IMG/VR virus record: IMGVR_UViG_3300043775_001610
Coordinates: 1 to 64,000 of that record
From: a virus
Strand: one strand, 5' to 3'
DNA: 64,000 nucleotides
Below the pieces are notes generated by a model that was given only the letters and a program-made list of their open reading frames with translations, did no database searches and was not told where the DNA came from. The position numbers and the translations under genes were made by a program. Positions within the stretch are counted from its first letter, which is position 1. Each line of letters begins with the position of its first letter. This document shows, one piece after another, positions 7,845 through 37,526 of this stretch.

Positions 7845-7850
7845 AAGAGC

Positions 7851-8890: not shown

Positions 8891-8895
8891 TATAA

Positions 8896-8970: not shown

Positions 8971-9006
8971 CTTGGTTTCTCATTTAATAAGGAGTATAAT
9001 ACTTAT

Positions 9007-9159: not shown

Positions 9160-9210
9160 TTTTCGGCTCACTTTTCGCCGCACTTTCTGAAATCAATAAG
9201 GAGATATGTT

Positions 9211-9963
9211 ATGTCTATAGAAGTTGAAATATACAACGATAAAATTTTTTATTTTAAAAATGCAATACCTAATTCTAAAGAAATTCTAAAGTATATAGAA
9301 TCTACGTCAAATGATATTATTACCGATTGGCTACCATGGGGAAATAAATATGCGTTTTCATTAGAGCAAAAAAAAGATTGGGAAGAATTAGGAATTACTC
9401 CAGAAGACTTTGGGTTAGCTAAATGTATATATGACCCAAACTGGTTTGACCCACATAAAAAAGATACTGAAAGTCATTGGGTATTTGAATCTATTAATAA
9501 AGCTGTTATAGATTGCTCAGATAAGTATGCAAATTATTTAGGGATAGACACTACCTTGAATCCTAGAATCCCATCGCCTGGGTATGTTATTGGTAAATAC
9601 AACTCTATGCAATCTAGAGGACTGCACACAGACTGCCCCTATGATGACCTAGAGCACTCCTTTGTCATATATTACAATGATGATTATTCTGATGGATATT
9701 TATATTTTCCAAACTATAATTTACAAATAAAACCAGAATCTGGAAGCATCATCATGTTTAAATCTTCGGATCTAGATAATGAACATGAAGCTGTTCCTAA
9801 TATAGGTTTTAAGTACATAACCCCACATTTTTGGAGAATGGGTCCATCACAAGGGTTTGTACCTTGGGGATTCAAAGATGTTAAATTACCAGAAGACATA
9901 ACTAATGATTTTTATAACTTAGAAACAGTAGAAAGAAATAAAAAACGGATATTTGGTGAATGA
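9211..9963 (+). CDS. 2OG-Fe(II) oxygenase
   Basis: HTD...YYNDDYSDG.LYFP...KPESGSIIMF...HEA...KY. Confidence 0.85.
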   Translation: MSIEVEIYNDKIFYFKNAIPNSKEILKYIESTSNDIITDWLPWGNKYAFSLEQKKDWEELGITPEDFGLAKCIYDPNWFDPHKKDTESHWVFESINKAVIDCSDKYANYLGIDTTLNPRIPSPGYVIGKYNSMQSRGLHTDCPYDDLEHSFVIYYNDDYSDGYLYFPNYNLQIKPESGSIIMFKSSDLDNEHEAVPNIGFKYITPHFWRMGPSQGFVPWGFKDVKLPEDITNDFYNLETVERNKKRIFGE

Positions 9964-10556
9964 TGGATAAAGTATACTTAGATGAAAACATATTTTATAT
10001 AGAAGATTTTATATCTAAAGAAGATATTGCCAAAATTCAAAAATCTATAAAGTCTAATTCTTACATTGAAGATTATGGACATTTAGCTCACACATCTTTA
10101 ATTTTAACAGAAAAAAGTTTAGTTGAAACTTGGAATTTTTATTTATCTAAATTAGAGGATATTTTTAATAACTCAACCGAATGGTTAGTACGTCCATATA
10201 CAGACTTTATCTCATTAATTAAATATAGAAATATTGATTTTTTATCAAAAGACACTCCTATAGAGTTTTTAAACTCGGAATATATAATGCCACCGCATGC
10301 AGATGACGTTTCATACGATCTATCTGAAAAAGATTTAAATGAAAGAAAGTCTTTTGTATCAAAAGGTTTAGTTATATTTATTAATGATGATTTTGATGAC
10401 GGTGAAATTGTTTATGTTAATAAAGGCATATCTGTAAAGCCAAAATCTGGAACTCTAATTTGTCACCCTGGCACAAAAGAATACTCCCATGCAGTAAATA
10501 GATTTTATAATGGAGATAGAGTCATAGCGTCAATGTTTGTTCACAAAAAAATTTAA
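9960..10556 (+). CDS. 2OG-Fe(II) oxygenase
   Basis: PHAD...INDDFDDGEI...KPKSGTLI.HPG..YSHAV...R. Confidence 0.85.
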   Translation: MMDKVYLDENIFYIEDFISKEDIAKIQKSIKSNSYIEDYGHLAHTSLILTEKSLVETWNFYLSKLEDIFNNSTEWLVRPYTDFISLIKYRNIDFLSKDTPIEFLNSEYIMPPHADDVSYDLSEKDLNERKSFVSKGLVIFINDDFDDGEIVYVNKGISVKPKSGTLICHPGTKEYSHAVNRFYNGDRVIASMFVHKKI

Positions 10557-16939: not shown

Positions 16940-17404
16940 ATGAAACTTAAGTCTTCGTTAAACCTTCTAACGCTTGCAGAGAATCCATCTGCAGCTTTAG
17001 AAGGTGACGTATACTTTAACATTTTAACAAAAAATATTAGAATATACAATGGAGCAGTTTGGGTAGACATTACTCCTAAAAGCGATGACCCTACTCCATT
17101 TTATATGCACACTCACGCATATGATGGTTCAGTACATACAGTTAATACACAAAATCCTATTAATTTTAAAAATACTAATACAGCACAAAGCGTTTTAGAG
17201 ACTACCCCGCTTGTTTTAGGATTTGACGGTGGTGGACCAGGTGATGAAGTAGATTTTCCTAGGTTTGAAAATCTATCATTACTTTCAGGAGGAGCACCAG
17301 ATTCTTTATACTATCCCGAATCTGATAGTATTGTAATTAATGGTGGGGACTCTTCTGATCAATATTCACCAGTAATAAATGGAGGGGATTCAAGTGGCAA
17401 CTAG
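16940..17404 (+). CDS. minor virion protein
   Basis: P....EGDVYFN......IYNG..W; repeated (D/N)GG motifs. Confidence 0.65.
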   Translation: MKLKSSLNLLTLAENPSAALEGDVYFNILTKNIRIYNGAVWVDITPKSDDPTPFYMHTHAYDGSVHTVNTQNPINFKNTNTAQSVLETTPLVLGFDGGGPGDEVDFPRFENLSLLSGGAPDSLYYPESDSIVINGGDSSDQYSPVINGGDSSGN

Positions 17405-19148
17405 AATTCAATTAAGAAGAGATGTAGAAGATGATTGGTTTAGAGATAACCCAATATTAAGATCTGGAGAAATTGGAATATCTTTAGATTTAAATACATT
17501 TAAAATTGGAGACGGACAAACTCCTTGGAGAGATCTTGATTACGCCTTGGCTGGCACAATTGATGAATATATTCCGTTAAATCAAAAATCAGTTCCTGGT
17601 GGAGTTGCAGCACTAGATTCTGCTGGCAAAGTACCAGATTCTCAAATTCCAGCAGGAATTGCAAGAGATTCAGAAGTATCTTTAGCAATTTCTACAGAGG
17701 TTGAAAATAGAAATTCAGCTATTACAAATGCTATATCAAACCTTATAGATACAGCACCTGATGCATTAAATACTTTAAATGAAATTGCCGCTGCAATTAA
17801 TGATGATGCTTCATACGCTGCAACTATAACAACAGCACTAGGAACAAAAGCTAATTTATCTGATGTTACAGCAGCAACTGCAGCAGCAGCAGCAGATGCT
17901 ACAACAAAGGCTAACGCAGCGCAAGCAGCCGCCGCATCAGATGCTACATCTAAAGCTAGCGCAGCGCAAGCCGCAGCAACTGCTGCAGCCGCATCAGATG
18001 CTACATCTAAAGCTAGCGCAGCTCAAGCAGCAGCTATCTCAGCAGCAGAAACAGATGCTACAACAAAAGCCAACGCAGCTCAAGCAGCAGCTATCTCAGC
18101 AGCAGCAACAGATGCTACAACAAAATCCAGCGCAGCTCAAGCAGCAGCAATATCTGCAGCAGCAACAGATGCTACAACAAAGGCTAACGCAGCACAAGCA
18201 GCAGCAATAACTGCAGCAGGAACAGACGCTACAACTAAGGTAGAAGCAGAAGCAGCACTAAGAGTATCAGGAGATGCAGCTTCAGTATCTACAGCAGCAG
18301 CAGATGCTACAACAAAGGCCAACGCCGCTCAAGCAGCAGCTATCTCAGCAGCAGCAGCAGATGCTACAACAAAGGCTAACGCCGCTCAAGCAGCAGCAAG
18401 CTCTGCGGCAGACACAAAGGTATCATCTGCAATAGCAGCACTTACAAAATCTTCAGTTGGGCTTGCAAATGTTGATAATACAGCAGATGCTTCAAAGCCA
18501 GTGTCTGCAGCACAAGCTACTGCAATCGCAACTGCTAAGTCAGAAGCAATTGCAGATGCAACAGCTCAGGTAAATGCAGTAATCGCATCAGCGCCAGCAG
18601 CACTTAATACTCTAGACGAGCTTGCAGCAGCACTTGGAGACGACGCAAGTTTTGCCGCTACAGTAACAGCTAATCTTTCATCTAAAGCCCCAATTGCCTC
18701 ACCAACATTTACTGGTACAGTATCAGGAATTACAAAGACTATGGTTGGGCTTGGTAATGTTGACAATACTTCTGATACCAACAAACCAATTTCTTCATTA
18801 ACTCAAACTGCTTTAAATGCAAAATCTGATAACTTAATATCTACAGCTGGAACAACAAGTACAAGCTATTCAATAACATCTTCTGATCTTTATAAAAGAA
18901 TAGAGTTTAATTCGGCATCACCAATTACGGTTACTATACCAGCAGATATTACTTTAAACCTACCAATTGGCTCTAGTATTGAATTGCTTCAAGCAAATAC
19001 TGGAAAGATAACTGTTCAGGGAGAGAGTGTATCTGTTTTAATTTATGGACCAGACAATCAATTTAAATCCAGAGTACAGTGGTCATCAATATTTATTGAA
19101 AAAAGAGCAGCAAACAGCTGGTTGGTAACTGGCGATACGGAAGCCTAA
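17394..19148 (+). CDS. tail fibre protein with Mtd-N-like N-terminus and Ala-rich repeats
   Basis: GTG start after GGAGG; TRIQLRR....W...NPIL..GEIG...D...FKIGDG..W; ADATTKANAAQAAA repeats; AP..LNTL.E.A..L.DD. Confidence 0.8.
   Translation: MATRIQLRRDVEDDWFRDNPILRSGEIGISLDLNTFKIGDGQTPWRDLDYALAGTIDEYIPLNQKSVPGGVAALDSAGKVPDSQIPAGIARDSEVSLAISTEVENRNSAITNAISNLIDTAPDALNTLNEIAAAINDDASYAATITTALGTKANLSDVTAATAAAAADATTKANAAQAAAASDATSKASAAQAAATAAAASDATSKASAAQAAAISAAETDATTKANAAQAAAISAAATDATTKSSAAQAAAISAAATDATTKANAAQAAAITAAGTDATTKVEAEAALRVSGDAASVSTAAADATTKANAAQAAAISAAAADATTKANAAQAAASSAADTKVSSAIAALTKSSVGLANVDNTADASKPVSAAQATAIATAKSEAIADATAQVNAVIASAPAALNTLDELAAALGDDASFAATVTANLSSKAPIASPTFTGTVSGITKTMVGLGNVDNTSDTNKPISSLTQTALNAKSDNLISTAGTTSTSYSITSSDLYKRIEFNSASPITVTIPADITLNLPIGSSIELLQANTGKITVQGESVSVLIYGPDNQFKSRVQWSSIFIEKRAANSWLVTGDTEA
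17870..18420 (+). repeat. degenerate tandem repeat encoding (A)DATTKANAAQAAAISAA
   Basis: GATGCTACAACAAA(A/G)GC(T/C)AACGC units; also present in 23040-23900. Confidence 0.85.
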
Positions 19149-20731
19149 TGAGAAGTGCTAAAAAGAAAAGGGTTGTTAACTCTAAGCTTAAAGCATATCA
19201 GCAGTTTTTAGATAGTTTTGGCGGTGTAACATTAAAAGCTGGATGGAAGTCTTACAGGGGATCCTGGGTTCTAGGTACTGGAGTTGCTATAAGTAGCTCA
19301 GACCCATCTACATATGCAATATCTGGAGTTAAGCTTTCGCTTCCAAATCTTACTGCATCTGCTGGAGTTACTGGTGGAACGGGATTAACATATTGGGTAT
19401 CAGATGCTAATAGCTGGGTTGCTTCTGTTTCTTACAATACTACATCTACAAGCTATCCATGCAATACTGGTTTAGTAACTAATGGAAGTAATCCACCATC
19501 TGCAAATTGTTGTGGAGGCGTTTCAACAATAGCTGGATCTGCTCCATATCAGTATGCAGCACAATTAAACCCTGCTTATTCTTTTTCATATTCAGCGGAA
19601 TTAAATCCTGCTTATTCATTTTCATATTCAGCGCAATTAAATCCCGCTTATTCATTTTCATATTCAGCGCAACTTAGCCCTTCTTATTCTTTTTCTTACG
19701 GTGCTGCATACCAGAATCCTTCTTCATCTAGCTACGCAGCATACAATCAGCCAGCATCAAGTTTTACATATAGCGCAAGCAGTTCTTACACAGCCGAAAC
19801 AAGGTGTTGTGGAGTTTTTAATATTTCTAAGGATTTTTATCAAAGAACAAATGGAATACCTTTATGTTCTCAATGCAGCGGGCCATGTGAAGAAACATAT
19901 TCTTTTAGCCAATGTTGTCCTTCAGGTACAACAAAATCAGGTGCAACATGTTATTACCCAGCCTCAGTTACACTGTCTTGCCCTTCTGGAGGAACCTTGT
20001 CTGGAAGTACTTGTACTGTAAGTACGCCAGCATCAACCACCTGTCCTTCAGGAGGAACTTTATCTGGAAATAATTGCATAGTTGATGTGCCTGGATACTA
20101 CTATTGCCCTTCAGGTGGAAACCTAAGTGGGTCTACTTGCACTGTTTCTGTAGCTGCTAGCTACAGCTGCCCTTCAGGCGGTAGCCTAAGTGGGTCTACT
20201 TGCACTGTTTCTGTACCTGCTAGCTACAGCTGCCCTTCAGGTGGTAGCCTAAGTGGGTCTACTTGCACTGTTTCTGTACCTGCTAGCTACAGCTGCCCTT
20301 CAGGTGGTAGCCTAAGTGGGTCTACTTGCACTGTTTCTGTACCTGCTAGCTACAGCTGCCCTTCAGGTGGCTCTTTGTCTGGCACAACATGCTATGTTGG
20401 CCCTGGACCAACTCAGTACAGCTGTTACACTCAAACAACAACGCAAACAAATTATAATTATTATTTAAATGTAATAAAATCAATCGGAGGAGTAGTAAGC
20501 TCAGTCGGTACAGATGTTGCATTGCCTTCACAGCCACTAGCAATAAAAGTTATTATTTCAGGAACAAATGTAAGATCTATTGCATATTCTACAATAGGAA
20601 TGACTAATTCTATAGGAGAAAGATCAGACACAATTACTTCACCGAATAGGACAGGCGTGGTTGGAATAATAAAATCTCCGTCTCCATATAATCAAGGCTC
20701 GACAGTTTCTAACTTTTCTGCTACAATATAA
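19148..20731 (+). CDS. Cys-rich repeat virion/adhesin-like protein
   Basis: 36-bp YxAQLNPAYSFS repeats, central Cys cluster, eight CPSG..LSG.TC units, beta-rich flanks. Confidence 0.75.
   Translation: MRSAKKKRVVNSKLKAYQQFLDSFGGVTLKAGWKSYRGSWVLGTGVAISSSDPSTYAISGVKLSLPNLTASAGVTGGTGLTYWVSDANSWVASVSYNTTSTSYPCNTGLVTNGSNPPSANCCGGVSTIAGSAPYQYAAQLNPAYSFSYSAELNPAYSFSYSAQLNPAYSFSYSAQLSPSYSFSYGAAYQNPSSSSYAAYNQPASSFTYSASSSYTAETRCCGVFNISKDFYQRTNGIPLCSQCSGPCEETYSFSQCCPSGTTKSGATCYYPASVTLSCPSGGTLSGSTCTVSTPASTTCPSGGTLSGNNCIVDVPGYYYCPSGGNLSGSTCTVSVAASYSCPSGGSLSGSTCTVSVPASYSCPSGGSLSGSTCTVSVPASYSCPSGGSLSGSTCTVSVPASYSCPSGGSLSGTTCYVGPGPTQYSCYTQTTTQTNYNYYLNVIKSIGGVVSSVGTDVALPSQPLAIKVIISGTNVRSIAYSTIGMTNSIGERSDTITSPNRTGVVGIIKSPSPYNQGSTVSNFSATI
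19553..19696 (+). repeat. 4 x 36-bp tandem repeat
   Basis: TATTCAGCGCAATTAAATCCCGCTTATTCATTTTCA-like units. Confidence 0.9.
19977..20395 (+). repeat. 63-bp tandem repeat (CPSGGSLSGSTCTVSVPASYS)
   Basis: Seven units, last ones near-identical (CTACAGCTGC at 20161, 20224, 20287, 20350). Confidence 0.9.
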
Positions 20732-20753
20732 ATATAAACAGAAAGAGATAATA

Positions 20754-21002
20754 ATGAAAAATCCATACATGAGGGGTGCCAGACCCTGGGATCTTTTTAA
20801 TAAAGAGCTTGGAAGGGTAGATGAAGATTTAGCCCAAGAGCGACTTGAGATATGTAAAGTTTGTCCAGAGCTTATTAAAGCAACATCTCAGTGTAAAAAG
20901 TGTGGATGTATCATGAATCTAAAAACAAAATTACCAAACGCCAGTTGCCCCCTAGGTAAGTGGTCTGCAGTTAATCCAGATGAAAATGAGGAAATTATAT
21001 AA
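20754..21002 (+). CDS. small Cys-rich protein (DUF6171-like)
   Basis: RPWD...R..IC..CP......QCKKCGC.M..KTKL....CP..KW. Confidence 0.75.
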   Translation: MKNPYMRGARPWDLFNKELGRVDEDLAQERLEICKVCPELIKATSQCKKCGCIMNLKTKLPNASCPLGKWSAVNPDENEEII

Positions 21003-21280
21003 TGGAAAATCCACCAATTAAAGTTGCTTTTGTTATTGATGGCAAAGTTGTAGACGTTTTACACACAGATGAAAGACTCGCTTCAATATTTTTGAGTGAC
21101 CCAGTAGTTATAGATGTAACTGAAATTTATGCCAACGGAGGAGTTGGTATTAATATGACAAACTGGGATTGGGATGGAGAGAATTTTTCATACCCAGCAT
21201 CATCATCAATTGGCTCACCAACAGAAGAAGAGCTCTTAGCAGAAGATTTAGCAATAGAAGAAGCAGACAAGCAACTTTAA
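21002..21280 (+). CDS. small acidic protein (IDG.V...W.WDG..F..P)
   Basis: ORF track; resembles 28521-28967. Confidence 0.7.
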   Translation: MENPPIKVAFVIDGKVVDVLHTDERLASIFLSDPVVIDVTEIYANGGVGINMTNWDWDGENFSYPASSSIGSPTEEELLAEDLAIEEADKQL

Positions 21281-21299
21281 TTATTTAGAAGGGTCGGAT

Positions 21300-21983
21300 A
21301 TGAAGAAAAAAATTCTTAAGTTTGCTATGTACGATGAAGTCTTTAGTCCGATAGTTCCAATAAAATCTTTAGTTCCTGACTGGTATAAGTCTATAGATAA
21401 GTTTAAAGATGGAGCAAAGCAGTATAGCCTTAACCCACCAAATGTAACGGTAAAAGTTTGTGGTCCATATATGGATTCAATGCTTACTGGTTATGCTTTA
21501 ACTGCACCTATAGATTTTTTAGTTGAAATAGAAGATGGAAAGCCAAAGATTAGACATAGGCTAGATGGACGTTTTTTTGGAGAAAGATCTGCAAACCAAG
21601 AAGTTCCAGCTCCTCCAGGATTTTATAGTCAGCAGTTTGCTTGGGAGTCAAAAGTTGCAATCAGCATACCAGAAGGTTATAGTTTTTTGTTTACCCATCC
21701 TTTAAATAGGGTTGACCTTCCATTCTATACCCTTTCTGGAATAGTAGATGGGCCGTATGACATGCAGCCAGGAAACTTCCCATTCTACATAAGAAAAGGA
21801 TTCTCTGGGGTAATTGAGGCTGGCACACCAATAGCTCAAATTATACCAATTAAAAGAGAGCCCTGGAAAGCTATTTCAGATTTAGATATCATTAAGGATG
21901 CAGAAAGAAACCATAAGCTTTCCAATAAGTCTATGATTGGCTGGTACAAGCAGAATATATGGCAAAGAAAGAGCTACGAGTAA
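21300..21983 (+). CDS. DUF6065-related / dUTPase-like beta protein
   Basis: PDWYK...TVK.C.P..D.M.TGY...P.D...P.GYS.LFTHP.NR...G.VD...GTPIAQIIP.KRE.W; paralog of 30611-31330. Confidence 0.7.
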   Translation: MKKKILKFAMYDEVFSPIVPIKSLVPDWYKSIDKFKDGAKQYSLNPPNVTVKVCGPYMDSMLTGYALTAPIDFLVEIEDGKPKIRHRLDGRFFGERSANQEVPAPPGFYSQQFAWESKVAISIPEGYSFLFTHPLNRVDLPFYTLSGIVDGPYDMQPGNFPFYIRKGFSGVIEAGTPIAQIIPIKREPWKAISDLDIIKDAERNHKLSNKSMIGWYKQNIWQRKSYE

Positions 21984-27390: not shown

Positions 27391-28434
27391 ATGGCAAATA
27401 AGAGAATAGGTAGAAAATCCTCAGCGCAGGATAACTTCTTAGAACCAAGTGCAGTTACTTCCTTAACTGCAACAAATGTGGGTACTGGGCGGGCATATAA
27501 TAATGGCGCAGCATCTCTTACATGGTCTTTGCCAGCCGCATCACCCCCAGCAACACTTTATACCATTACATCAACCCCAGCAACAACAACACAAACTACT
27601 TCTAGCACTAGTTATACATTTACTGGATTAGCAAGTGCCACGGCTTATACTTTTACAGTTGTTGCTTCAAACGCTGCGGGATCATCTCAGCCAACAACAT
27701 CAGGATCAATAACTGCTACAACAGTTCCGCAAGCTCCAAACGCATCTGTTTCAACAAGTGCCGCTGGGCCAACCCCAGTCCCAGCTTCTGGCTTTGACAG
27801 AATTACTTTTTCTGCAAACGCTACAGGTGGAAGCGCAATAACTACTTTTCAAATTACTTCTAGCATTCGTGGATCTTTGTCTGCTTCTGCAACATCTCCA
27901 TTTGATACAGCATCTCCAAACTCTGAAACTTATACTGTTTACGCAACGAATGCAAATGGACAGTCTGCTGGCACGACAACTGGAACTGTAGAAACTTTTA
28001 CGCCACCACACTTCCCACCGTTCTTCCCACCGTTCTTCCCACCACATTTCCCACCATTCTTCCCACCTTTCTTCCCACCACACTTCCCACCGTTCTTCCC
28101 ACCACACTTCCCACCGTTCTTCCCACCGTTCTTCCCACCACATTTCCCACCATTCTTCCCACCACACTTCCCACCATTCTTCCCACCATTCTTCCCACCG
28201 TTCTTCCCACCGTTCTTCCCACCACACTTCCCACCGTTCTTCCCACCACACTTCCCACCGTTCTTCCCACCGTTCTTCCCACCGTTCTTCCCACCGTTCT
28301 TCCCACCTTACTTCCCACCGTTCTTCCCACCACACTTCCCACCGTTCTTCCCACCGTTCTTCCCGCCACACTTTGTAGGAGGATCCTACTTCTGCCCATG
28401 GTGTGATTGCGCAGGGTCTAACTGGTACTGCTAA
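27391..28434 (+). CDS. FN3-domain virion protein with (PPxF)31 tract and C-terminal Cys cluster
   Basis: LTW..P......Y......FTGL...T.YTFTV.A.N..G.S FN3 signature; PPHF/PPFF repeats; [13 protein letters not shown]. Confidence 0.8.
28003..28374 (+). repeat. 31 x 12-bp tandem repeat CCACC(A/G)(TTC/CAC)TTC
   Basis: 372 nt encoding 20 PPFF, 10 PPHF and 1 PPYF. Confidence 0.95.
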
Positions 28435-28444
28435 TTAATACTAA

Positions 28445-28470
28445 CTGGGGCAATAGAAATATTGCCCCAG
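28445..28470 (+). terminator. perfect hairpin after the PPxF gene
   Basis: CTGGGGCAATA-GAAA-TATTGCCCCAG. Confidence 0.6.
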
Positions 28471-28520
28471 GGTATTGATAAAAAATAAAAAATATTGTAC
28501 AATTATTAAAAGGAGATATA

Positions 28521-28967
28521 ATGCCATACTTTGGATATGTAAGAGACGGAATAGTCAAATACGTTCAGCTTGTAACAAGCTCTACCCCCGCACAGTCAAA
28601 ATGGATAGCGCTAAATAGATCAGGAGTTATCTTAAAAGACTCAAGTAATTACGATGTAATGCCAGGAGACTTGTTTACTGATGGTAAATTTTATAAAAAA
28701 GACGCCGAAACTAATAATACAACTTTACTAGAAGATGGTGCATTTACTCTCCCAAACGCAATAAGAGTTGCTGGAATTGTTGATGGCGAAATAGTCGGAC
28801 AATGGGGAATGGGAACAGAACTCTTTGAAAACATAGAAGAAGCTCATCAGTTTATTGATGATATAGTTAACTCTCAAATAGTTGAAATAGAACAAGAGCA
28901 GCAGTTTTTAGTTGAAAAAGGTTGGCTTTATGATGGAGTCAATTTTACTAACCCAGACAATGCTTGA
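28521..28967 (+). CDS. hypothetical protein (two V.DG.V...G...DG..F units)
   Basis: ORF track; resembles 21002-21280. Confidence 0.7.
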   Translation: MPYFGYVRDGIVKYVQLVTSSTPAQSKWIALNRSGVILKDSSNYDVMPGDLFTDGKFYKKDAETNNTTLLEDGAFTLPNAIRVAGIVDGEIVGQWGMGTELFENIEEAHQFIDDIVNSQIVEIEQEQQFLVEKGWLYDGVNFTNPDNA

Positions 28968-29221
28968 TGAGCAGCGATAGCAAAAAAAGTGCTTGGGAAA
29001 AGTATAAAGAAAGTCTAGGAGACTCCAGACCTTGGGATTTTTTAGATCCAAATACAAAATATGTAGATAAATCTGTATCTGAAAAAAGATACAGTATTTG
29101 TCTATCTTGTCCAGAATTTATAAAAACAACAAAACAGTGTAAAAAATGTGGCTGTGTAATGACTTTAAAAACTAAACTTAGTAACGCTGAGTGTCCAATA
29201 GAAAAATGGGGAAAAGAATGA
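28964..29221 (+). CDS. small Cys-rich protein (DUF6171-like)
   Basis: RPWD...ICLSCP......QCKKCGCVM..KTKL....CP..KW; paralog of 20754. Confidence 0.75.
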   Translation: MMSSDSKKSAWEKYKESLGDSRPWDFLDPNTKYVDKSVSEKRYSICLSCPEFIKTTKQCKKCGCVMTLKTKLSNAECPIEKWGKE

Positions 29222-29880
29222 TGTATGAAAAAGAAGAGCTATTTCCAGGACTTTGGGTATATAGAAACGTAATTACTCCAGAGATGGATATAATTAATAG
29301 GCTAGAAAACGCTATAAGTAATTCCAAAGGTATGCATACTTGGAAAGAAGCAACAGTCGGATACAGAGAAAAAATGCCTGACTATAGAGATTGCGTAGAC
29401 TTTAAATGGAAAAAGTTCGATGATGATTTTGGAAACAAATACAATACCGAAGTGAATTCAGTATGGCAAGATGTATATGATGTTCAGGCTGTTGCACTAA
29501 ATGATTACTCTTCTTTTTACAATATTGAGTTAAAGTATTGGGAAGCAATGAATTTTATTAAATATGGAGAAGGTCAACATTTTTCTTACCATTCAGATCA
29601 TGGTTGGTCATATATATCAACAGTATCAATGGTTGCATATATTAACGATGATTATGAAGAGGGCGGACTAAGATTTGATAAGCTTGATTTAACAATAAAA
29701 CCAAAAGCTGGAGACCTATACATATTCCCATCTACATATTTATTTTCACACGCTGCTCTTCCAGTAAAATCTGGTATTAAATATTCAATTGTTACAATGA
29801 CAGATTATAATGATGCTACACATACAGAATCTTTTTATAGACAATTTATGTCTGAAAAGTCAATGAAAGATGGGTACTGA
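29218..29880 (+). CDS. 2OG-Fe(II) oxygenase (prolyl 4-hydroxylase-like)
   Basis: KYGEGQHF..HSD...YINDDYEEGGL.F...KPKAGD..IFPS..LFSHA..PVKSG.KYSIV. Confidence 0.9.
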   Translation: MMYEKEELFPGLWVYRNVITPEMDIINRLENAISNSKGMHTWKEATVGYREKMPDYRDCVDFKWKKFDDDFGNKYNTEVNSVWQDVYDVQAVALNDYSSFYNIELKYWEAMNFIKYGEGQHFSYHSDHGWSYISTVSMVAYINDDYEEGGLRFDKLDLTIKPKAGDLYIFPSTYLFSHAALPVKSGIKYSIVTMTDYNDATHTESFYRQFMSEKSMKDGY

Positions 29881-30614
29881 TGAACTTTGATGTTTATAAA
29901 GTTTATCCAAATCAATCAGCAAATATCCAGCCTTTAGGTGTAAAAAGAGAATGGATGGATGAGACATCTGATAAGCATGCTTATCATTGTTTTCCAGTAA
30001 GCTTATCAAATACTTTAGGTTGGGGAATTTCTTTTCCAGTTGATATTGAATTTATTTGGGACGGTATATCAGATTCAACGGATACTCATGTTAAGGTTTT
30101 AAAGGGTCACGAGTATGTTTCAACCTCAAGGGCTAATGCAACCATTAGCTTTAATACAAATTTGGTAATAAGAAGCGAAGAAAATGTAAGTATGCTGGCT
30201 ATGCCGACACCAAACTGGCCAATAGATGGCGTTTGGCCTTTTACAACGTTAATAAGCACTTCATTTTTTAAAGGAACATTTCCTGTTGCATGGAGAATAA
30301 CAAAGGCTAACGAAGTTATTACTATACCAGCTAACACGCCAGTAGCATCAGTAATTCCTATATCTTTATCTAACTTAAACAATTCAGTAGCAACAATAAA
30401 AGGATACAAAGACTTGCCTATAGACTTTTTCCCAAAAGAAGACTACGGTAAAATTGTTAGCGATATTAATAAATCTGGAAAATGGACTGACTTCTATAGA
30501 AATGCTGTAGACCATAAGAATAATAAAATTGGATCTCATGAGGTAAAATCTTTAAGATTAAAAAATGATGAAACTTTCATAGATGGTCCAGAAGGCTGCG
30601 GTATACCAAAATGA
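29880..30614 (+). CDS. DUF6065 family protein
   Basis: I.P....R.WMD.T...HAY.C.P....N..GW.I..P.D....WDG. Confidence 0.75.
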   Translation: MNFDVYKVYPNQSANIQPLGVKREWMDETSDKHAYHCFPVSLSNTLGWGISFPVDIEFIWDGISDSTDTHVKVLKGHEYVSTSRANATISFNTNLVIRSEENVSMLAMPTPNWPIDGVWPFTTLISTSFFKGTFPVAWRITKANEVITIPANTPVASVIPISLSNLNNSVATIKGYKDLPIDFFPKEDYGKIVSDINKSGKWTDFYRNAVDHKNNKIGSHEVKSLRLKNDETFIDGPEGCGIPK

Positions 30615-31330
30615 ACAAGATAACATTTCATTCTAACAAGCATTATAATGATACAGAAACAGCACCCTGCCCAACTGCAAAAGTTATACCAAAATGGTGG
30701 CATGATGCTGATATTTATATAAAAGATTTTTATGGCAATCCAGTTTCTAATGCAAATAAAGACGGCGGTAAGATGCTAAACTTTAAAGCATGTCCAGCTA
30801 TGCTTGATACATTTACAACAGGATACACACTTGTTACACCTTGTGATATAGAATTTTATGAAAAAAATAATAGAATCAAAGCAAAAGTTCCATTAAAGTT
30901 TGATGATTTTGTTGGAGAGAGGCCAGCATCTGATGGATTCCAAGTTCCTTTTGGCTATGATAAGAATCATTTTCATTGGTATGCTAATTGGGCTCCACAG
31001 CTACCAGAAGGGTACAGCTCTTTGTATGTTCAGCCTATAAATCATTTTGATTTACCATGGCTTACTGTTGGTGGTATAATAGATAGTGATAAGGTTACAA
31101 CCTCTGGGCTGATACCGTTTTTTATACAAAATGGATTTACTGGCGTTGTTCCAGCAGGGACACCATATTTACAAATAATACCATTTAAAAGAGAAGATTG
31201 GGAATCAGATTTTATTTTTCATAAGCCAATTGATATTATGCAAAAAGCTATGAAGACGTCAGAGACTTTTAGAACACCAGAGGGTGGAGTCTATAAGAAG
31301 AAATTTTGGACTAGAAGGAGATATAAGTAA
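30611..31330 (+). CDS. DUF6065-related protein
   Basis: IP.WW...FKACPA.LD...TGY...TPCD...P.GYS.L...P.N...G.IDSD...GTP..QIIPFKRE.W; paralog of 21300. Confidence 0.7.
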   Translation: MNKITFHSNKHYNDTETAPCPTAKVIPKWWHDADIYIKDFYGNPVSNANKDGGKMLNFKACPAMLDTFTTGYTLVTPCDIEFYEKNNRIKAKVPLKFDDFVGERPASDGFQVPFGYDKNHFHWYANWAPQLPEGYSSLYVQPINHFDLPWLTVGGIIDSDKVTTSGLIPFFIQNGFTGVVPAGTPYLQIIPFKREDWESDFIFHKPIDIMQKAMKTSETFRTPEGGVYKKKFWTRRRYK

Positions 31331-32020
31331 ATGGAAAAAAGATTAAATACCAATAAAACTCACGACTACAGGTCTTTGGGATCTATAACTCCATCTGGAT
31401 TCTTTGGCGCAGGACCTGAAAATATTGTAGAGTTAAAAAACTTTTTAACAGATGAAGAAAGAGTAAGACTCACCCACTTTGCTAAAAACAATACAACTTG
31501 GGATATTACAGATTCTCACGTAAATGAAAATGGAACTGTGATATATGATGCTAACGCTTGGCACGACAGAGTTTGCACTCGTAGATCTATGGAAATTTCT
31601 GCTGACCCACATATTGTAGATGTTGTAGACAACCTAATATCCAGACTGCAGGTAGAGGTAGAAAAATTTTTTAACGTTAAGGTACAAGCAACAGGCCCAG
31701 CTATTGTTAGATGGCCAATAGGGTCAAGACAGGATCCACACGCAGACAAAGAGCTTCACGAAGGTCCAGATGCAGGAACTCCAAACGATTTTCCACATTA
31801 CGATATAGCTTCATTATTTTATTTTAACGATGACTACGAAGGCGGAGAATTGTTTTTCCCTGTTCAAGGAATAGAATTTAAACCTGTTGGGGGATCAGCA
31901 TATTTTTTCCCAGGAGATAAAAATTATATTCATGGAGTAAGACCAATTATCGCAGGAGGAAGATACACCTCACCATTCTTTTGGCAGATACTTGAGCACA
32001 CTGGTGACATAAAGCCATGA
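31331..32020 (+). CDS. 2OG-Fe(II) oxygenase
   Basis: RWP.G..Q.PHAD...YFNDDYEGGELFFP...FFPGD..YIHGV....GGRYT. Confidence 0.9.
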   Translation: MEKRLNTNKTHDYRSLGSITPSGFFGAGPENIVELKNFLTDEERVRLTHFAKNNTTWDITDSHVNENGTVIYDANAWHDRVCTRRSMEISADPHIVDVVDNLISRLQVEVEKFFNVKVQATGPAIVRWPIGSRQDPHADKELHEGPDAGTPNDFPHYDIASLFYFNDDYEGGELFFPVQGIEFKPVGGSAYFFPGDKNYIHGVRPIIAGGRYTSPFFWQILEHTGDIKP

Positions 32021-32871
32021 CCCTTGAATATAAAGAGATATATCCAAAGATATGGGTATTTAAAAATCCATGGAAAGACATAGACCTATTAACAAAAACA
32101 ATAATTGATTCGGAACAAAACCCAGAAGGCTCTGCTTTAAATTGGCATGGCTGGTACACCTTTGGAAAAGAAGCTGATCAGTTTAACCATTCAATTGAAT
32201 CATCTGAAAGAACTGAATTAGAAAAACGTTTCTGGGATGAAATAATTGAGGTTTTTAATAAAACAACAAGTCAGTATGCGGATACTTTTAGCGTACCACT
32301 TGATAGAGACGCAATAGTTTTTAACGAAGAAACTGGAAACGATGATCCTATGTGGAAAAGAATGGGACCTTCAATATGTAAGTATGAAGTCGATGGAGGA
32401 ATTGAAGATTCCGACCTTGCAATGCATGTACATACAGACTACCAAAGAGACTATCATGATTTTAGAGGATATAAGTTTACGTTTACCTGCACCATGTATT
32501 TAAATGGAGACTATGAAGGCGGAGGACTTACTTTTTTGGTAGACAATAAAACTCTTTATTACAAACCAGAAAAGGGCGACATTTTGTTATTCCCAGCAGG
32601 AGACCCAGATTTTCTTTCCGATGCTGGACAATTTTATATGCATGGAGTTGAAAAAGTTAAGGGCACCCCTAAGTATTTTGTAAGAAACCATTGGGTTAGA
32701 TTTTATCCTGGATCGCCAGAATGGCTAGAAAACGAAAAACTTTATGGAAAAGAAATATGGAAAGAAATGGAAATTGCCAGAACTAAAGAAGAAAGAAAGT
32801 CTGGAGCTTATCAAACAATAAACTATGATGAACTTAAAAAGCTAGAAAGGATTAATTTAAATGACATTTAA
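32017..32871 (+). CDS. 2OG-Fe(II) oxygenase
   Basis: HTD...YLNGDYEGGGL.F...YKPEKGD...FP...HGV......KY. Confidence 0.88.
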   Translation: MTLEYKEIYPKIWVFKNPWKDIDLLTKTIIDSEQNPEGSALNWHGWYTFGKEADQFNHSIESSERTELEKRFWDEIIEVFNKTTSQYADTFSVPLDRDAIVFNEETGNDDPMWKRMGPSICKYEVDGGIEDSDLAMHVHTDYQRDYHDFRGYKFTFTCTMYLNGDYEGGGLTFLVDNKTLYYKPEKGDILLFPAGDPDFLSDAGQFYMHGVEKVKGTPKYFVRNHWVRFYPGSPEWLENEKLYGKEIWKEMEIARTKEERKSGAYQTINYDELKKLERINLNDI

Positions 32872-33613
32872 TTTAGAAAATCAGAATAGAGTTAAAGAAG
32901 ACATAGTGTTTTTTGAAAATTTTCTTAGTCCAGAAGATTGCGAAAAAGTTATTAAATATTGGGAGCATTCTGTAGAAAAAGGAACTCTTCCATGGGCACC
33001 AATATCATTCTACGATTCCTTTGCTTCAAATTTACCAGACGATGAAGACAAGGAAAAGTTTGGCCTTCCTTCTGATTTTTTTACTAAGCTTCAAGATAAA
33101 ATACAAGAGGCTACAGAAATATGTAGAGGCGATAAGGTTAGACTAGTTAGCTATCACGCACAGAAATGGGTAGAGGGAGCTTATGCAGGTTACCATTCAG
33201 ACAATACCCCAATAGATTCTCCAGAATACAACTCTTTTGAAAGAAGCAAGTGGGCAGCATTCCTTTACTTAAATGATGATTTTGAAGGTGGCGTTTTAAA
33301 CTTTAGGGATCATGATATTTCTTTGCAGCCAAAAACTGGAATGCTAGCAGCATTTGCTGGAGGTCATCACAATATACATGAAGTACAAATGATTACTAAG
33401 GGAACAAGAATAACTATAGGATCATTTTGGGATAATGAAGAGGCTGTTTATAGCGAAGAAAAGCAGGCTATGTGGGAAACCGATATAGCAGATCAAAGAA
33501 AAAGACAGGCAGAGGACGCAGAGCTTTGGGCAGAACTTAAAGCAAGAGGTGAAAGACTAAAGCCTGGACCAGATCAAACTGCTAAAAAAGAAGTAGCATT
33601 GGAGATAGAATGA
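32861..33613 (+). CDS. 2OG-Fe(II) oxygenase
   Basis: HSDN...LYLNDDFEGG.L.F...PK.G....F.G...N.HEV..I..G.R. Confidence 0.88.
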   Translation: MTFNLENQNRVKEDIVFFENFLSPEDCEKVIKYWEHSVEKGTLPWAPISFYDSFASNLPDDEDKEKFGLPSDFFTKLQDKIQEATEICRGDKVRLVSYHAQKWVEGAYAGYHSDNTPIDSPEYNSFERSKWAAFLYLNDDFEGGVLNFRDHDISLQPKTGMLAAFAGGHHNIHEVQMITKGTRITIGSFWDNEEAVYSEEKQAMWETDIADQRKRQAEDAELWAELKARGERLKPGPDQTAKKEVALEIE

Positions 33614-34419
33614 TAAAAACGACTGTATTAGAAAACGGAATGATTAGAGAAGAGCTTCACCCGCAAGTTTATTATTATAGAAATGCTATCCCTAATGTAA
33701 AAGAATGGCTAGATCTTGTAAATGATTCTGAAAATCATGAAGACCTTTATTCGATTATCACACCATGGAACACATGGGATGTAGATGAAAACAGAGCTTT
33801 TGGAAACCCTTATGTTTACGGATATAAAAAATTATGTTTGTTAAATAGTGTTTTTAATATAGATAAAGACGTCACAGAAGAAACAAAAGAGTTCTTTATT
33901 AAAATTAGAGATCCACTTTTTAATGCAATTAAGGCAGTTTGTGAAGATTATAAAGAGTCTCAAGGAATTAAAGAAGATATTATATTGCTAGAGCAATTTG
34001 GAGTTCATAGATATAGGTCTGGTAACTTTATGGGAGTTCATCATGATTCACAAGAAGGTGACACTAGACTTCTTTATTCCATGGTAGTTTGGCCTAATGA
34101 TGACTATGAAGGTGGAGAACTATCTTTTTCTATAAAAGACGGAGTTCTTACTAGCACAGAGCTTTCTTTGCAGGGCGATCTTTTTGATCCTAAAAATGAA
34201 GGCTTGTATGATTTTTATATTAAGCCAGAAGCGGGGAGCATAGTAATATTCCCTTCACCTTCTCCATTTAGCCATACAGCACATGTTGTTAAATCTGGAT
34301 GGAAGTATATGTTACCAATGTTTTGGATAGACCCTAATGGAGAAGATGCATTGTTTAAGCAAGATCCAGAGTGGCGGCCAGAGTTTGTTTACCCAGATAA
34401 AGAAGATTTATTTAAGTAA
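33610..34419 (+). CDS. 2OG-Fe(II) oxygenase
   Basis: MG.HHD...NDDYEGGELSF...KP.AGS.VIFPS..P..HTAH.V..G.KY. Confidence 0.88.
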   Translation: MIKTTVLENGMIREELHPQVYYYRNAIPNVKEWLDLVNDSENHEDLYSIITPWNTWDVDENRAFGNPYVYGYKKLCLLNSVFNIDKDVTEETKEFFIKIRDPLFNAIKAVCEDYKESQGIKEDIILLEQFGVHRYRSGNFMGVHHDSQEGDTRLLYSMVVWPNDDYEGGELSFSIKDGVLTSTELSLQGDLFDPKNEGLYDFYIKPEAGSIVIFPSPSPFSHTAHVVKSGWKYMLPMFWIDPNGEDALFKQDPEWRPEFVYPDKEDLFK

Positions 34420-34464
34420 AAATATCTGGTACAATTATTACAAAAGTTATAAATAGGAGGAAGT

Positions 34465-35181
34465 ATGAAAAGCGAAGAATTATTTGATAAGGTGTATTAC
34501 TACACGGATGTTATAAAGGAGCCTAAAAAGCTTGTTGATTTAATCGAATCAACAGAATCTGATAAATACTCAAGCTTCATCACCCCCTGGGAAGAGTGGG
34601 GTGCATGTAGTGGACAAATGTACATTTATGGATCACACAAAAGAATAAAGTGTTTGTCTTCTGAAGATATAGAAAAAAATATATCCGAAGATGTTATAGA
34701 TGATTGCAACTATATTTTCAATGAGATATTTGATGGTATGAAAAATGTCTGTGAAGATTATGCTTCAAAAATCGGTGATGATGCTGAGATAATTTTAATG
34801 ACAGATACAGCAATTAAGAAATACATGCCTGGAACTTTTATGGGATCCCACTTTGATCAGCAGGAGGGGGATAGAAGACTTAGGTATTCTATGGTAATGT
34901 ATTTAAATGATGATTACGAAGGCGGAGAAATATCTTTTAATGTAAAAGATGGAGTATTGACTTCTACAGATGATGCCGCTGCAGAAGATTTTGATAGCCC
35001 ACTTAATCATGATAGAATTATGTTTCACGTTAAGCCGAAGGCTGGAAGCGTAATAATCTTTCCTTCAACAGATCCATATAGTCATACAGCACACCTTATA
35101 AAAGGCGGATCTAAGTATATGGTCCCTTCGTTTTGGCTTAACACTGGTAAATTCGTAGATGGCGTTTTTATTCCAAACTAG
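34465..35181 (+). CDS. 2OG-Fe(II) oxygenase
   Basis: MG.HFD...YLNDDYEGGEISF...KPKAGS.IIFPS..PY.HTAH...G.KY; close paralog of 33610. Confidence 0.88.
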   Translation: MKSEELFDKVYYYTDVIKEPKKLVDLIESTESDKYSSFITPWEEWGACSGQMYIYGSHKRIKCLSSEDIEKNISEDVIDDCNYIFNEIFDGMKNVCEDYASKIGDDAEIILMTDTAIKKYMPGTFMGSHFDQQEGDRRLRYSMVMYLNDDYEGGEISFNVKDGVLTSTDDAAAEDFDSPLNHDRIMFHVKPKAGSVIIFPSTDPYSHTAHLIKGGSKYMVPSFWLNTGKFVDGVFIPN

Positions 35182-35193
35182 AAAGAGTTAATT

Positions 35194-35739
35194 ATGGCAA
35201 TGTACGTTTTTCAAGAAATTGCACCAAAGACATTTTATTTTACATATTGTCTTCAAGAGATTGGGAACTATATAAGCTTCCTTGAAGAAAGCGAAAAGAA
35301 TCCAAGTAATTTAATTAGTCAGTGGCAAGACACAGAGTATGGATATGAGAAGAAGGTATCTTCTGATTTTTCTAACGAGTCTGGTCCAGTAGACACTCGT
35401 AGCCTTTTTATTATTAATAACTTGAAGGCGACATTCCATCACTGTTTTAGTCAGTATAAGATATTTAACAATATAGAAGAAGAAGTTAATCTAAGCACCG
35501 ACTATTTTGTAAGAAAACATAATGAAGGACAAGTAAAAAATAATTGTGGAGCAAAGGGCAAGTATACTGCTAGACTATATATTAACGATTCTTTTTCTGG
35601 TGGAGAAATTTCAATACCTGGAAAGCCTAAGTTTAAGCCAGAGGCAGGCAGCATAATTATCTCTCCATCAGATGTACAGGTGACAGCAGAACCAGCAAAT
35701 GGTAATTCAAGATACATTGCAATAGGTCATTGGGTTTAA
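35194..35739 (+). CDS. degenerate 2OG-Fe(II) oxygenase-fold protein lacking metal ligands
   Basis: LYINDSFSGGEI...FKPEAGSIII.PS...RY retained; no HxD or distal His. Confidence 0.7.
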   Translation: MAMYVFQEIAPKTFYFTYCLQEIGNYISFLEESEKNPSNLISQWQDTEYGYEKKVSSDFSNESGPVDTRSLFIINNLKATFHHCFSQYKIFNNIEEEVNLSTDYFVRKHNEGQVKNNCGAKGKYTARLYINDSFSGGEISIPGKPKFKPEAGSIIISPSDVQVTAEPANGNSRYIAIGHWV

Positions 35740-35765: not shown

Positions 35766-37526
35766 ATGTCATACTACCTAGATGTAATAAAAGATTCTCC
35801 GATTGGCTTGTGGAAGTTAGATGAGCTTTCTGGGTCTATTGCTTATGATATTTCTGGTTGCGACAATCATGCATCTTACGTAGGTCAGATAGTTAAATTT
35901 GGAATGCCAATCGTATCGGGTGGAAACCATTCAAATAAAATTGATAGTTCTAATTATATACAGTTTACTATATCAAAAGACTTTTCTGGGACAAATGGAA
36001 CTGGAGGATTTGCAACATCGGATACTTACGATAATGATTTCTCCCTTGAAGCATGGATTCATCCCAAAACATTAACATCTCTTACGCCAATTTTAGCAGA
36101 TTCTTCTGGGATTGGATTATATTGGGATAACGGAAATGTTGTATTTAAATTAGAATCCGAAAGAATTGATTATTCTGTGCCTAATCCAAATAGAGTTATT
36201 CATGTCGTTGGAGTTTACTCTATAAGATCAATGAGTCTTTATGTAGATGGGCTACTTGTAGCAACGCAAAGTGTATCTAATAAATTTACAAATACCAGCG
36301 TTACTCTTTTATCTGGACCGACTACTGCTGGTCAATATTTCTTAATCGACAGTCCAGCTGTGTACAGGTACGCCTTGTCTAACAAATCTATATCTTCACA
36401 CTATAATAATTTGTTTTTAGACAAAGATGAGCAAATTGTTGTCCCAGATTTTGGTCAGCTACTTGTTGTTTCAGAAAAACATTACAATCCAGAAACAGAA
36501 TATCTTTATCCAGAAAGAGAAAGTTGGAGGTCCCTATCTTTTGATAGTACCAACCTTTCTTACAATGAAAAAAATAATAGTTTATGCTTAAGCTCTGGAT
36601 CTTCTGGAGAAATGATAAAAGTTTTAGGTTTAAATATTATAAAGCCTTATGTGTCTTCAAAGATTGATTGGGTTGCCTCTACTGGAGTTTCTATTTATGT
36701 TTCAGATGTTTCTGAGGCTGGGCCATGGAGCATATGTACAAATGGATCCTCTATACCAGGATTTACACAAGGGTCTAACTTTTCTACAAAAAAAATTCTA
36801 TATTTTAAAATTCAATTTGCTTCTTCAAATTTAAATATTTATATGCCAGAGTTATACTCCTTAAAAATTTCTTTTTACAATGAGAAAAAGGTGTTTGCAC
36901 ATAATGGGGGCAATATCCTATCGGTGCCACAGCCAACATCTGGATCCACTTGGGATGTAGATTTGTCAAGCAATAGCTATCCAGTAAGAACTAAAAATTA
37001 TTATAATGGAGTTAGGCCTAAATCCTCAGTGTTTTGCGTAAGCTTATCAGAAGAAGCAAAAAGCTTAGAGATGATATTTACCCCCAAGTCCCTGTCTAGC
37101 GGATTTCTTTTATTTAATAAAACTGGTCTAGTTGAAACCTACCTATCCTGGTCGGCTAACGGCGACATAACAAAATCAAATATTAGTAGCATATATATAA
37201 ATGGGCAAGATATATCCTCAGCAACTAACATTTCTTCTTATCTATATTTAGATGATCCAAACTATATATTTATTAAGGCCTCCTCTTTGTTTTCTGGAGA
37301 ATTATGGTTAAACGGCAAACAATTATTAGGGGTAAGGTCTGGAGTTCTAGACGACAACTTATACCAAAATATTGCCACCTATCTGTCAGACACGATCAAC
37401 CCATCTGAGCATTATAATCTTTATATTGGAAAATCAGCAGCAATTGGCCAGGGTTCGTCTATATCGATGACAGAAGAGTCTGTTTCTACGTACTCTAGAG
37501 ACAGGGTTGTGTTCCAAATCATATAA
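35766..37526 (+). CDS. LamG/concanavalin-A-like domain virion protein
   Basis: D.P.GLW.LDE.SG..A.D.SG..N; FSLEAWI; HVVGVY.....LYVDG; D..AVY..AL; leaderless start. Confidence 0.75.
   Translation: MSYYLDVIKDSPIGLWKLDELSGSIAYDISGCDNHASYVGQIVKFGMPIVSGGNHSNKIDSSNYIQFTISKDFSGTNGTGGFATSDTYDNDFSLEAWIHPKTLTSLTPILADSSGIGLYWDNGNVVFKLESERIDYSVPNPNRVIHVVGVYSIRSMSLYVDGLLVATQSVSNKFTNTSVTLLSGPTTAGQYFLIDSPAVYRYALSNKSISSHYNNLFLDKDEQIVVPDFGQLLVVSEKHYNPETEYLYPERESWRSLSFDSTNLSYNEKNNSLCLSSGSSGEMIKVLGLNIIKPYVSSKIDWVASTGVSIYVSDVSEAGPWSICTNGSSIPGFTQGSNFSTKKILYFKIQFASSNLNIYMPELYSLKISFYNEKKVFAHNGGNILSVPQPTSGSTWDVDLSSNSYPVRTKNYYNGVRPKSSVFCVSLSEEAKSLEMIFTPKSLSSGFLLFNKTGLVETYLSWSANGDITKSNISSIYINGQDISSATNISSYLYLDDPNYIFIKASSLFSGELWLNGKQLLGVRSGVLDDNLYQNIATYLSDTINPSEHYNLYIGKSAAIGQGSSISMTEESVSTYSRDRVVFQII

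Follow-up and report, generated by a model that had tools for sequence, protein, structure and literature searches.

An aromatic-proline repeat gene linked to an array of prolyl-hydroxylase-like oxygenase genes in a lake phage: a candidate module for tailoring a fibre-associated protein

The prolyl 4-hydroxylase (P4H) of the chlorovirus PBCV-1 acts on that virus's own proline-rich repeats (Eriksson et al. 1999, as cited in PMC9301287). In aquatic phages, tandem sets of 2-oxoglutarate (2OG)-Fe(II) oxygenase genes have been noted since 2010, with up to 24 genes per genome and a function that was called untested (PMC2938197, PMC9602691). One such set, gp41-gp54 of cyanophage Syn9, is a tandem dioxygenase array that includes a dUTPase-fold protein having a conserved Cys (Iyer, Abhiman, de Souza, Aravind 2010, PMC2938197); its authors proposed secondary-metabolite synthesis and named no protein substrate (PMC2938197). 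Viral P4H enzymes with viral proline-rich substrates, tandem phage arrays with a dUTPase-fold protein and the many oxygenases of cyanophages are already known. Here we describe a locus in positions 1-64,000 of IMGVR_UViG_3300043775_001610 (the window, that is, the whole 64,000-nucleotide stretch analysed), which belongs to an uncultured lake phage whose full record is 110,252 bp and 92% complete. In this locus a gene for a protein that carries 31 PPxF tetrapeptides near its C terminus lies upstream of six intact and one degenerate P4H-like oxygenase genes (Table 1). The literature that we searched on PPFF and phage, on DUF6065 and on phage prolyl hydroxylase or tail fibre held no description of an aromatic-proline tail family or of its linkage to such an array.

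The candidate substrate, the product of open reading frame (ORF) 27391-28434, consists of a conserved N-terminal peptide, FN3-type domains (Pfam fn3 match at residues 38-103, E 2.1e-9), the repeat and a 19-residue tail with four Cys. An initial annotation, made from the sequence alone, had described an FN3 protein ending in 31 PP(F/H/Y)F units with 62 Pro and a four-Cys tail, and this count was exact: 20 PPFF, 10 PPHF and 1 PPYF units run uninterrupted over 124 residues and contain 62 Pro, out of 76 in the entire 347-aa protein. At the DNA level the region is a tandem repeat with a 12-nt unit and 29.5 copies. The PPxF reading frame is genuine, because it runs on from the FN3 domain and because distant relatives use other codons for PPFF; two minus-strand ORFs over the repeat (27751-28371 and 27998-28399) were rejected as its by-products. 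Judged solely from its FN3 domains and its place after the fibre gene, the product would be a virion protein, and neither this location nor the metal binding suggested earlier gained support from any result here. The repeat contains no Gly, and so lacks the Gly at every third residue that marks a collagen-like sequence. It contains no Ser either, and the protein has no Ser-Pro(n) and does not begin like a signal peptide, and the block of fibre, tail and oxygenase genes encodes no glycosyltransferase. Membership of the tail protein in the collagen or extensin families was rejected on these sequence grounds; the extensin analogy of the initial annotation fails with it, and nothing suggests the glycosylation that hydroxylation often primes in eukaryotes. 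PR-39, a mammalian proline-rich antimicrobial peptide, holds PPFFPP and PPRFPP stretches, and the repeat at 28003-28374 resembles such stretches of the mammalian peptides. We take this resemblance as coincidence because the phage repeat is not cationic.

Six genes downstream (29191, 31331, 32017, 32861, 33610 and 34465) pass PF13640 at 29.5-47.5 bits, where membership means a score above the Pfam gathering cut-off (27 bits). In an alignment all six have the HxD...H iron triad and, ~10 residues past the distal His, a K/R of the kind that contacts the 2OG C5 carboxylate. Among ox1 orthologues H134, D136 and H187 never vary and conservation of K197 is 90% or more; the start of ox1 itself is ambiguous (GTG 29191 or ATG 29218). 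The initial annotation had counted seven oxygenase-fold genes, and the seventh (35194, ox7) stands apart: it matches PHROG 61 only and is degenerate, because the HxD and the distal His are both gone, and its orthologues are conserved in close relatives. The seven genes lie within 6.5 kb and their products are only 21-44% identical to each other, so the paralogues are old and not the outcome of recent tandem duplication; each has conserved orthologues in a fixed order. Two DUF6065-family genes (29880 and 30611) lie among the six intact oxygenases. To say that the array directly follows the repeat gene is loose: the array is downstream, as stated, but a hairpin, a promoter-like site, gene 28521 and a DUF6171 gene come between. 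The overlapping stop and start codons were seen again, as overlaps or abutment from 28964 through 34419. Pfam scans of all proteins of the block returned PF13640, DUF6065 and DUF6171 only.

The repeat gene and the oxygenase array are strongly linked, in one direction and in two phage backbones. When PPxF genes were collected by DNA pattern alone, 19 of 23 had one or more oxygenases in the 8 kb downstream (on average 4.8), compared with 1 of 18 upstream. The co-occurrence that the initial annotation had proposed as a check was found, also in phages with an unrelated portal. The order of Mtd_N fibre, aromatic-proline tail protein and oxygenases with DUF6065 occurs on ~100 IMG/VR contigs, including phages with an unrelated portal; a Mtd_N homologue is immediately upstream of the PPxF gene in most loci and precedes the tail gene in nearly all relatives. 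Within ~60 loci, which were collected via the tail protein, the order ox1-DUF6065-30611-ox2-ox3-ox4-(ox5)-ox6-(ox7)-LamG-portal is kept down to 30-60% identity. Three large records without a recognisable shared portal have 7/7, 7/10 and 5/7 of their PF13640 hits within 16 kb downstream of the PPxF gene, and a DUF6065 gene stands beside an oxygenase in the portal-unrelated phages G001, G002 and G004 as well. The PF07230 (T4 portal) profile matched nowhere, controls included, and is therefore uninformative. Five relatives, whose portals are 75-77% identical, lack oxygenases over 35-78 kb and lack PPxF as well; all five keep Mtd_N-type fibre genes (three recognised through Pfam, two through blastp to 24749). 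A second gene set in the window, cassette A, has a fibre, a DUF6171 and a DUF6065-like gene and has neither PPxF nor an adjacent oxygenase.

The tail protein belongs to a family of 1714 homologues, in which the FN3 parts align and the C-terminal parts vary. The repeat may be PPxF, FFxPPG or PFGFT, and its number ranges from 4 to 38 units even where the FN3 part is ~90% identical. The protein finishes in a Cys-rich knot, in a handful of residues (RGY, GFRY, PPSFK) or in a Hint/intein-like domain whose first residue is Cys. Four homologues (P0001, P0003, P0005, P0008) whose FN3 part is 84-94% identical to that of the window have ~4 to 12 PPxF units, compared with 31, and other Cys tails. Since proteins this similar in the FN3 part differ in both, repeat length and tail end turn over very fast, in the manner of a contingency locus. 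In the DNA-pattern scan the PPxF tail was found attached to unrelated N-terminal domains, 80 to 1100 residues long, of proteins whose gene in almost every case comes next after a Mtd_N-type fibre gene, and the tail therefore behaves as a portable C-terminal module of fibre-associated proteins. Oxygenases number 5-8 at both PPxF and FFxPPG loci, and 2 only in the single PFGFT lineage (L139). Because they are present with a Cys-rich, a Hint or no end, and with PPxF or FFxPPG, the oxygenases track the repeat and not the tail end.

Outside phages the PPxF DNA pattern is almost absent, with 24 hits in 596 Gb of prokaryote genomes, and the records with multiple hits carry the same phage module inside metagenome-assembled genome (MAG) bins of several phyla. 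The bins with the module (L300, L306, L310, L313, L314, L316, L319) bear the labels Verrucomicrobiales, Gammaproteobacteria, Acidibacter, Cyclobacteriaceae and Chitinophagaceae. These copies are probably phage contigs mis-binned into genomes, and for that reason they give no independent cellular evidence. Neither tblastn of the tail protein nor blastn of the block against cultured phages gave a match.

Structure prediction places ox1 near enzymes that act on proline in proteins. The AlphaFold2 (AF2) model of ox1, the sole oxygenase modelled, was built from 44 orthologues and has a predicted local distance difference test score (pLDDT) of 88.9; its fold is a double-stranded beta-helix. In a Foldseek search all of the matches listed (ranks 1-50) are protein prolyl hydroxylases, at template modelling (TM) scores of about 0.5-0.68; the top match is vCPH of chlorovirus PBCV-1 (5c5t, E 9.3e-11), and PHD2, CrP4H, the Pseudomonas enzyme PPHD and the B. 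anthracis enzyme BaP4H are among the others. By sequence the oxygenases match BaP4H, LH3 and P3H1 in the PDB. These results support a place for the oxygenases in the protein prolyl-hydroxylase branch, for ox1 by its model, and they agree with the P4H-like family, with HxD...H...K/R in six, that had been named at the outset.

The partner proteins are of another kind. The AF2 model of 30611 (pLDDT 93.2) has a dUTPase fold, with a VIA-align Z of 10.1 to a dUTPase, and the best 22 matches of its structure search are all dUTPase or dCTP deaminase. By eye, GGIIDSD of 30611 resembles dUTPase motif III and AGTP..QIIP resembles motif IV, and the Gly-rich motif V is not evident; Cys61 is invariant in this DUF6065-like family. 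In DUF6065 proper (29880) the Asp residues are gone, and no dUTPase family matched either protein by sequence in the Pfam and PHROG scans. A homologue of 30611 in a haloarchaeal tailed virus (HSTV-2 gene 40) adjoins thymidylate synthase and DNA polymerase genes. Among 401 sampled Pseudomonadota, 23 (~6%) have a DUF6065 above the cut-off; these genes are uninformative on the phage pairing, because they have no oxygenase within 1.5 kb. A tblastn search with 29880 against cultured phages found no match, and an Atlas search returned DUF6065 clusters only.

We tentatively propose that the oxygenases hydroxylate the aromatic-proline tail of the fibre-associated protein, which we regard as a candidate substrate; on the genes described above this is a good hypothesis, and we stop just short of calling it probable. 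The block would then be a phage module that tailors a fibre-associated protein. The 124 residues of aromatic-proline polymer near the C terminus of the FN3 protein, of which half are Pro and the others Phe, His or Tyr, are predicted to form a stiff, very hydrophobic tail of the polyproline-II type. In the infected cell the six intact enzymes of the next transcription unit would hydroxylate this tail with Fe(II), 2-oxoglutarate and O2. The divergent paralogues could take different positions, such as Pro1 or Pro2 and C3 or C4, and possibly the beta-carbons of Phe and His, and the hydroxylated tail may become soluble and rigid, or adhesive. What we infer is that the enzymes act on this substrate, that the paralogues share out the work and that hydroxylation alters the tail physically. 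The tail end would be matured by a separate route, through a Cys-rich knot with DUF6171 here and a self-cleaving Hint domain in relatives.

Several observations weigh against this proposal. Because the contigs share a phylogeny, the counts may go back to few independent events, and because the two features adjoin in one block, their joint presence or absence may reflect a single insertion or deletion. Syn9 has several oxygenases and a DUF6065-family gene downstream of its fibres and PP[FYHL]FPP nowhere in its genome, and two of the five oxygenases of S-MbCM7, which is without a Pro-rich ORF, directly follow short-tail-fibre genes; since these arrays occur without PPxF, the oxygenase family as a whole does not need PPxF substrates. 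The genome studied here has four more PF13640-like genes far from the tail gene (7830, 9960, 103728 and 104913). The PPxF proteins L177, L179, L196, L210 and L213 have no oxygenase within ~10 kb, and G003 holds only one oxygenase in 88 kb. From the sequence, the enzymes seem to be transcribed separately from the tail gene, and a tetrapeptide seems too simple to need 6-11 enzymes. The initial annotation had held that arrays equally present in phages without proline-rich substrates would speak against it; Syn9 and S-MbCM7 go part of the way there.

An alternative that we consider unlikely is that the array and the dUTPase-fold proteins are an auxiliary metabolic or secondary-metabolite set, whose target is a small molecule, a free peptide or the proteins of the host, or which consumes 2-oxoglutarate, and which lies near the fibres because this region collects accessory genes. 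Secondary-metabolite synthesis is what Iyer et al. 2010 (PMC2938197) proposed for the Syn9 array, and control of host 2OG and nitrogen metabolism has been proposed in the cyanophage literature (PMC9602691). Oxygenases of the same family occur away from any repeat gene, both here and in cyanophages, and the block looks like a lineage-specific insert between the ribonucleotide reductase (RNR) and the portal module that is absent from Streptomyces relatives. However, the listed structural neighbours of ox1 are all protein prolyl hydroxylases and none is a small-molecule or nucleic-acid oxygenase, the Pfam scans found no non-ribosomal peptide synthetase (NRPS), halogenase, transferase or transporter among the block proteins, and the linkage to PPxF genes is strong and directional in two backbones.

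It is also possible, and to us rather doubtful, that the substrates of the oxygenases lie among the other virion proteins of the fibre block, for example the Mtd_N fibres, the Laminin_G protein, the Cys-rich low-complexity protein or Gly-rich adhesin-like proteins, and that the PPxF tail is a mere neighbour in a hypervariable fibre region. Substrates of this kind were foreseen by Iyer et al. 2010 (PMC2938197), who predicted that bacterial hydroxylases would act on tail-collar and collagen-like proteins encoded alongside them. In T4-like cyanophages oxygenases come directly after fibre genes without PPxF (Syn9 gp34-gp39, then gp41-gp54; S-MbCM7 029-032), and a Mtd_N fibre gene precedes nearly every tail gene. 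Against this, oxygenases are missing from relatives that keep Mtd_N fibres without PPxF, no oxygenase adjoins the fibre and the Cys-rich protein of cassette A, and the array is downstream of the PPxF gene and not of fibre genes generally. That the oxygenases and dUTPase-fold proteins modify nucleotides or DNA, to which the dUTPase fold of the 30611 model (Z 10.1) with its motif III/IV-like stretches and the halovirus homologue beside thymidylate synthase and DNA polymerase might point, is very improbable, as ox1 is not of the AlkB or TET/JBP type by structure search, DUF6065 proper (29880) has lost its Asp residues, the operon sits among fibre genes and not replication genes, and bacterial DUF6065 genes have no oxygenase within 1.5 kb.

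Hydroxylation of the aromatic-proline tail can be carried further, to a speculative form that we think improbable as a whole: a ribosomally made virion polymer with its own assembly line, in which 6-11 position-specific hydroxylases would produce a densely hydroxylated polyproline-II rod of Hyp, dihydroxy-Pro and perhaps beta-hydroxy Phe/His, somewhat similar to mussel adhesive proteins, and in which interchangeable modules would finish the ends: a Cys knot with DUF6171, or a Hint domain that would expose a reactive C terminus through which the rod could be attached covalently. If this were true, a phage structural protein would for the first time be seen to have a multi-enzyme pathway of post-translational tailoring, and the many P4H genes of aquatic phages would be explained.

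The tail ends suggest a second partnership. In loci L089-L168 a DUF6171 gene follows the tail gene for 29 of 31 Cys-rich tails, for none of 20 Hint tails and for one of 12 Cys-free tails, and in cassette A DUF6171 (20754-21002) again comes after a Cys-rich protein. DUF6171 is a small protein with five Cys. Because DUF6171 co-varies with the kind of tail end, maturation of the end appears to be served by a partner of its own, distinct from the oxygenases, and DUF6171 is a candidate for a dedicated partner of Cys-rich tails through metal, disulfide or thioether. This pairing is new, as nothing on it was found in the literature searched, and it is testable in its own right. In many orthologues (P0021, P0022, P0032, P0044, P0094; L122, L128, L141 and others) a Hint/intein-like domain replaces the Cys tail, with a Cys right after the repeat and HN at its end; L138 and L139 have Ser instead of that Cys. 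Self-cleavage of this domain is predicted, which would leave the protein ending in the repeat, perhaps in the form of a reactive thioester.

The window has a G+C content of ~38%. Its HK97-type portal shares 58.5% identity with portals of Streptomyces BE-cluster phages, and hundreds of IMG/VR contigs are closer relatives than these; we infer low-G+C freshwater actinobacteria as hosts. In Streptomyces phage Genie2 the ribonucleotide reductase is followed by three genes only (LysM endolysin, gp47 and gp48) and then by the portal, and its 578-aa gp47 and 111-aa gp48 occupy the matching pre-portal positions, as judged by position and size alone. Here the whole block (~14500-35740) falls between RNR (12381) and the pre-portal genes, and in relatives a homologue of 35766 sits directly ahead of 37590 and the portal. 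Since the region is absent between RNR and portal in Streptomyces relatives such as Genie2, the block looks like a lineage-specific insert.

Cassette A is a paralogous set to 24749-31330, with three of five pairs found by blastp (17379 and 24749; 20754 and 28964, 55% identical; 21300 and 30611, 31% identical). Its order is Mtd_N fibre 17379, Cys-rich low-complexity protein 19148, DUF6171 20754, small protein 21002 and DUF6065-like 21300. A small protein of the W.(W/Y)DG type is common to both cassettes (21002 and 28521); for the product of 28521 there was no Pfam or PHROG match, and its resemblance to 21002 is at the level of the motif, as blastp found none. Protein 19148 contains NPAYSFSYSAQL and CPSGG..C repeats. 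Outside the window, at 91326-93527 of the genome (L295:1326-3527), a second Pro-rich protein of 733 aa has a PA14 domain and a PT repeat (PTPTPKPTPTPKP...), and the oxygenases 103728 and 104913 lie ~10 kb downstream of its gene.

Table 1. Features of the repeat gene, the oxygenase operon and their surroundings in the window
Feature	Position	Strand	Basis and remarks
Two further weak PF13640-like genes (7830-8579, 9960-10556)	7830..10556	+	profile match
Cassette A (5 genes, no oxygenases)	17379..21983	+	blastp and sequences
Mtd_N-type fibre protein, 870 aa	24749..27361	+	Pfam Mtd_N E 8.2e-16
FN3-(PPxF)31-Cys-rich tail protein, candidate substrate, 347 aa	27391..28434	+	ORF, Pfam, repeat count
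31 PPxF units, aa 205-328	28003..28374	+	12-nt DNA repeat
Perfect 11-bp-stem hairpin just past tail-gene stop	28445..28470	.	terminator-like, without T tract on + strand
Promoter-like TTGATA-17-TACAAT ahead of enzyme operon	28475..28503	+	consensus match only
148-aa protein	28521..28967	+	C-terminal GWLYDGxNFxxP motif, like that of 21002
DUF6171 small Cys-rich protein	28964..29221	+	Pfam E 4.2e-6, PHROG 13558 E 1.2e-17
ox1, P4H-like 2OG-Fe(II) oxygenase	29191..29880	+	PF13640 E 3.6e-12
DUF6065 protein	29880..30614	+	Pfam E 9.9e-33
DUF6065-like (phrog_7084) protein	30611..31330	+	PHROG E 2.2e-29
ox2	31331..32020	+	Pfam; most conserved paralogue, 56-94% identity across relatives
ox3	32017..32871	+	Pfam PF13640, motif alignment
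ox4	32861..33613	+	Pfam; 38% identical to distant copy 103728; best PDB sequence match P3H1 E 6.4e-6
ox5	33610..34419	+	Pfam; 44% identical to ox6
ox6	34465..35181	+	Pfam PF13640, motif alignment
ox7, degenerate oxygenase-fold paralogue	35194..35739	+	PHROG 61 E 5.4e-6; no Pfam match
Laminin_G_3 protein	35766..37526	+	Pfam; downstream border of block

The module offers a concrete substrate, encoded by a neighbouring gene, for oxygenases of aquatic phages, and one that can be tested with a short synthetic peptide. If the aromatic-proline tail is indeed hydroxylated by these enzymes, bacteriophages tailor their own adsorption apparatus by hydroxylation of the collagen type, and the tail is a new protein material. 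Oxygenase genes now labelled auxiliary metabolic would then be re-labelled as genes of structural maturation, which would alter counts in viral ecology.

Compared with known systems, the locus shares with algal and plant P4H (CrP4H, 2jig and 3gze) and their extensin-type hydroxyproline-rich glycoproteins the fold of the enzyme (ranks 4 and 9) and the concept of a polyproline-II rod after hydroxylation; unlike the extensin-type system, the window has no Ser-Pro(n), no glycosyltransferase in the block and no secretion signal, and half of the repeat is aromatic. BaP4H (3itq, 5hv0; E 1.4e-4) and PPHD (4iw3) are the best PDB sequence matches and also structural matches, but each is a single enzyme, whose substrate is a collagen-like peptide or a lone Pro in a folded host protein (EF-Tu for PPHD), with no array beside a repeat gene. 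PBCV-1 is alike in combining genes for a P4H-type enzyme and for Pro-rich repeat proteins in one virus, and its enzyme (5c5t) is the top structural match of ox1. The PBCV-1 substrates are of the (PAPK)n type, without aromatic residues. PBCV-1 differs further in being a eukaryotic virus with one enzyme whose activity was shown, whereas the locus here is that of a bacteriophage, with six intact, divergent paralogues, dUTPase-fold partners and a PPxF repeat. Syn9 resembles the locus in having many divergent 2OG oxygenases in tandem, with a dUTPase-fold conserved-Cys protein inside the array and a position downstream of fibre genes, and the profile of the DUF6065-like family (A2) matches Syn9 gp43 (E 9e-15). 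It is unlike the locus in that its array includes two Trp halogenases and a JmjC/MINA member, neither of which appeared in the Pfam scans of the block, and in that its fibre-associated proteins are Gly-rich and not Pro-Phe, with no PPxF. In Syn9 (L339, 24000-46000) the dioxygenase/halogenase array follows a fibre gene and the Gly-rich gp36, gp38 and gp39. A low-complexity fibre-associated protein followed by an oxygenase array may be a theme common across phage groups.

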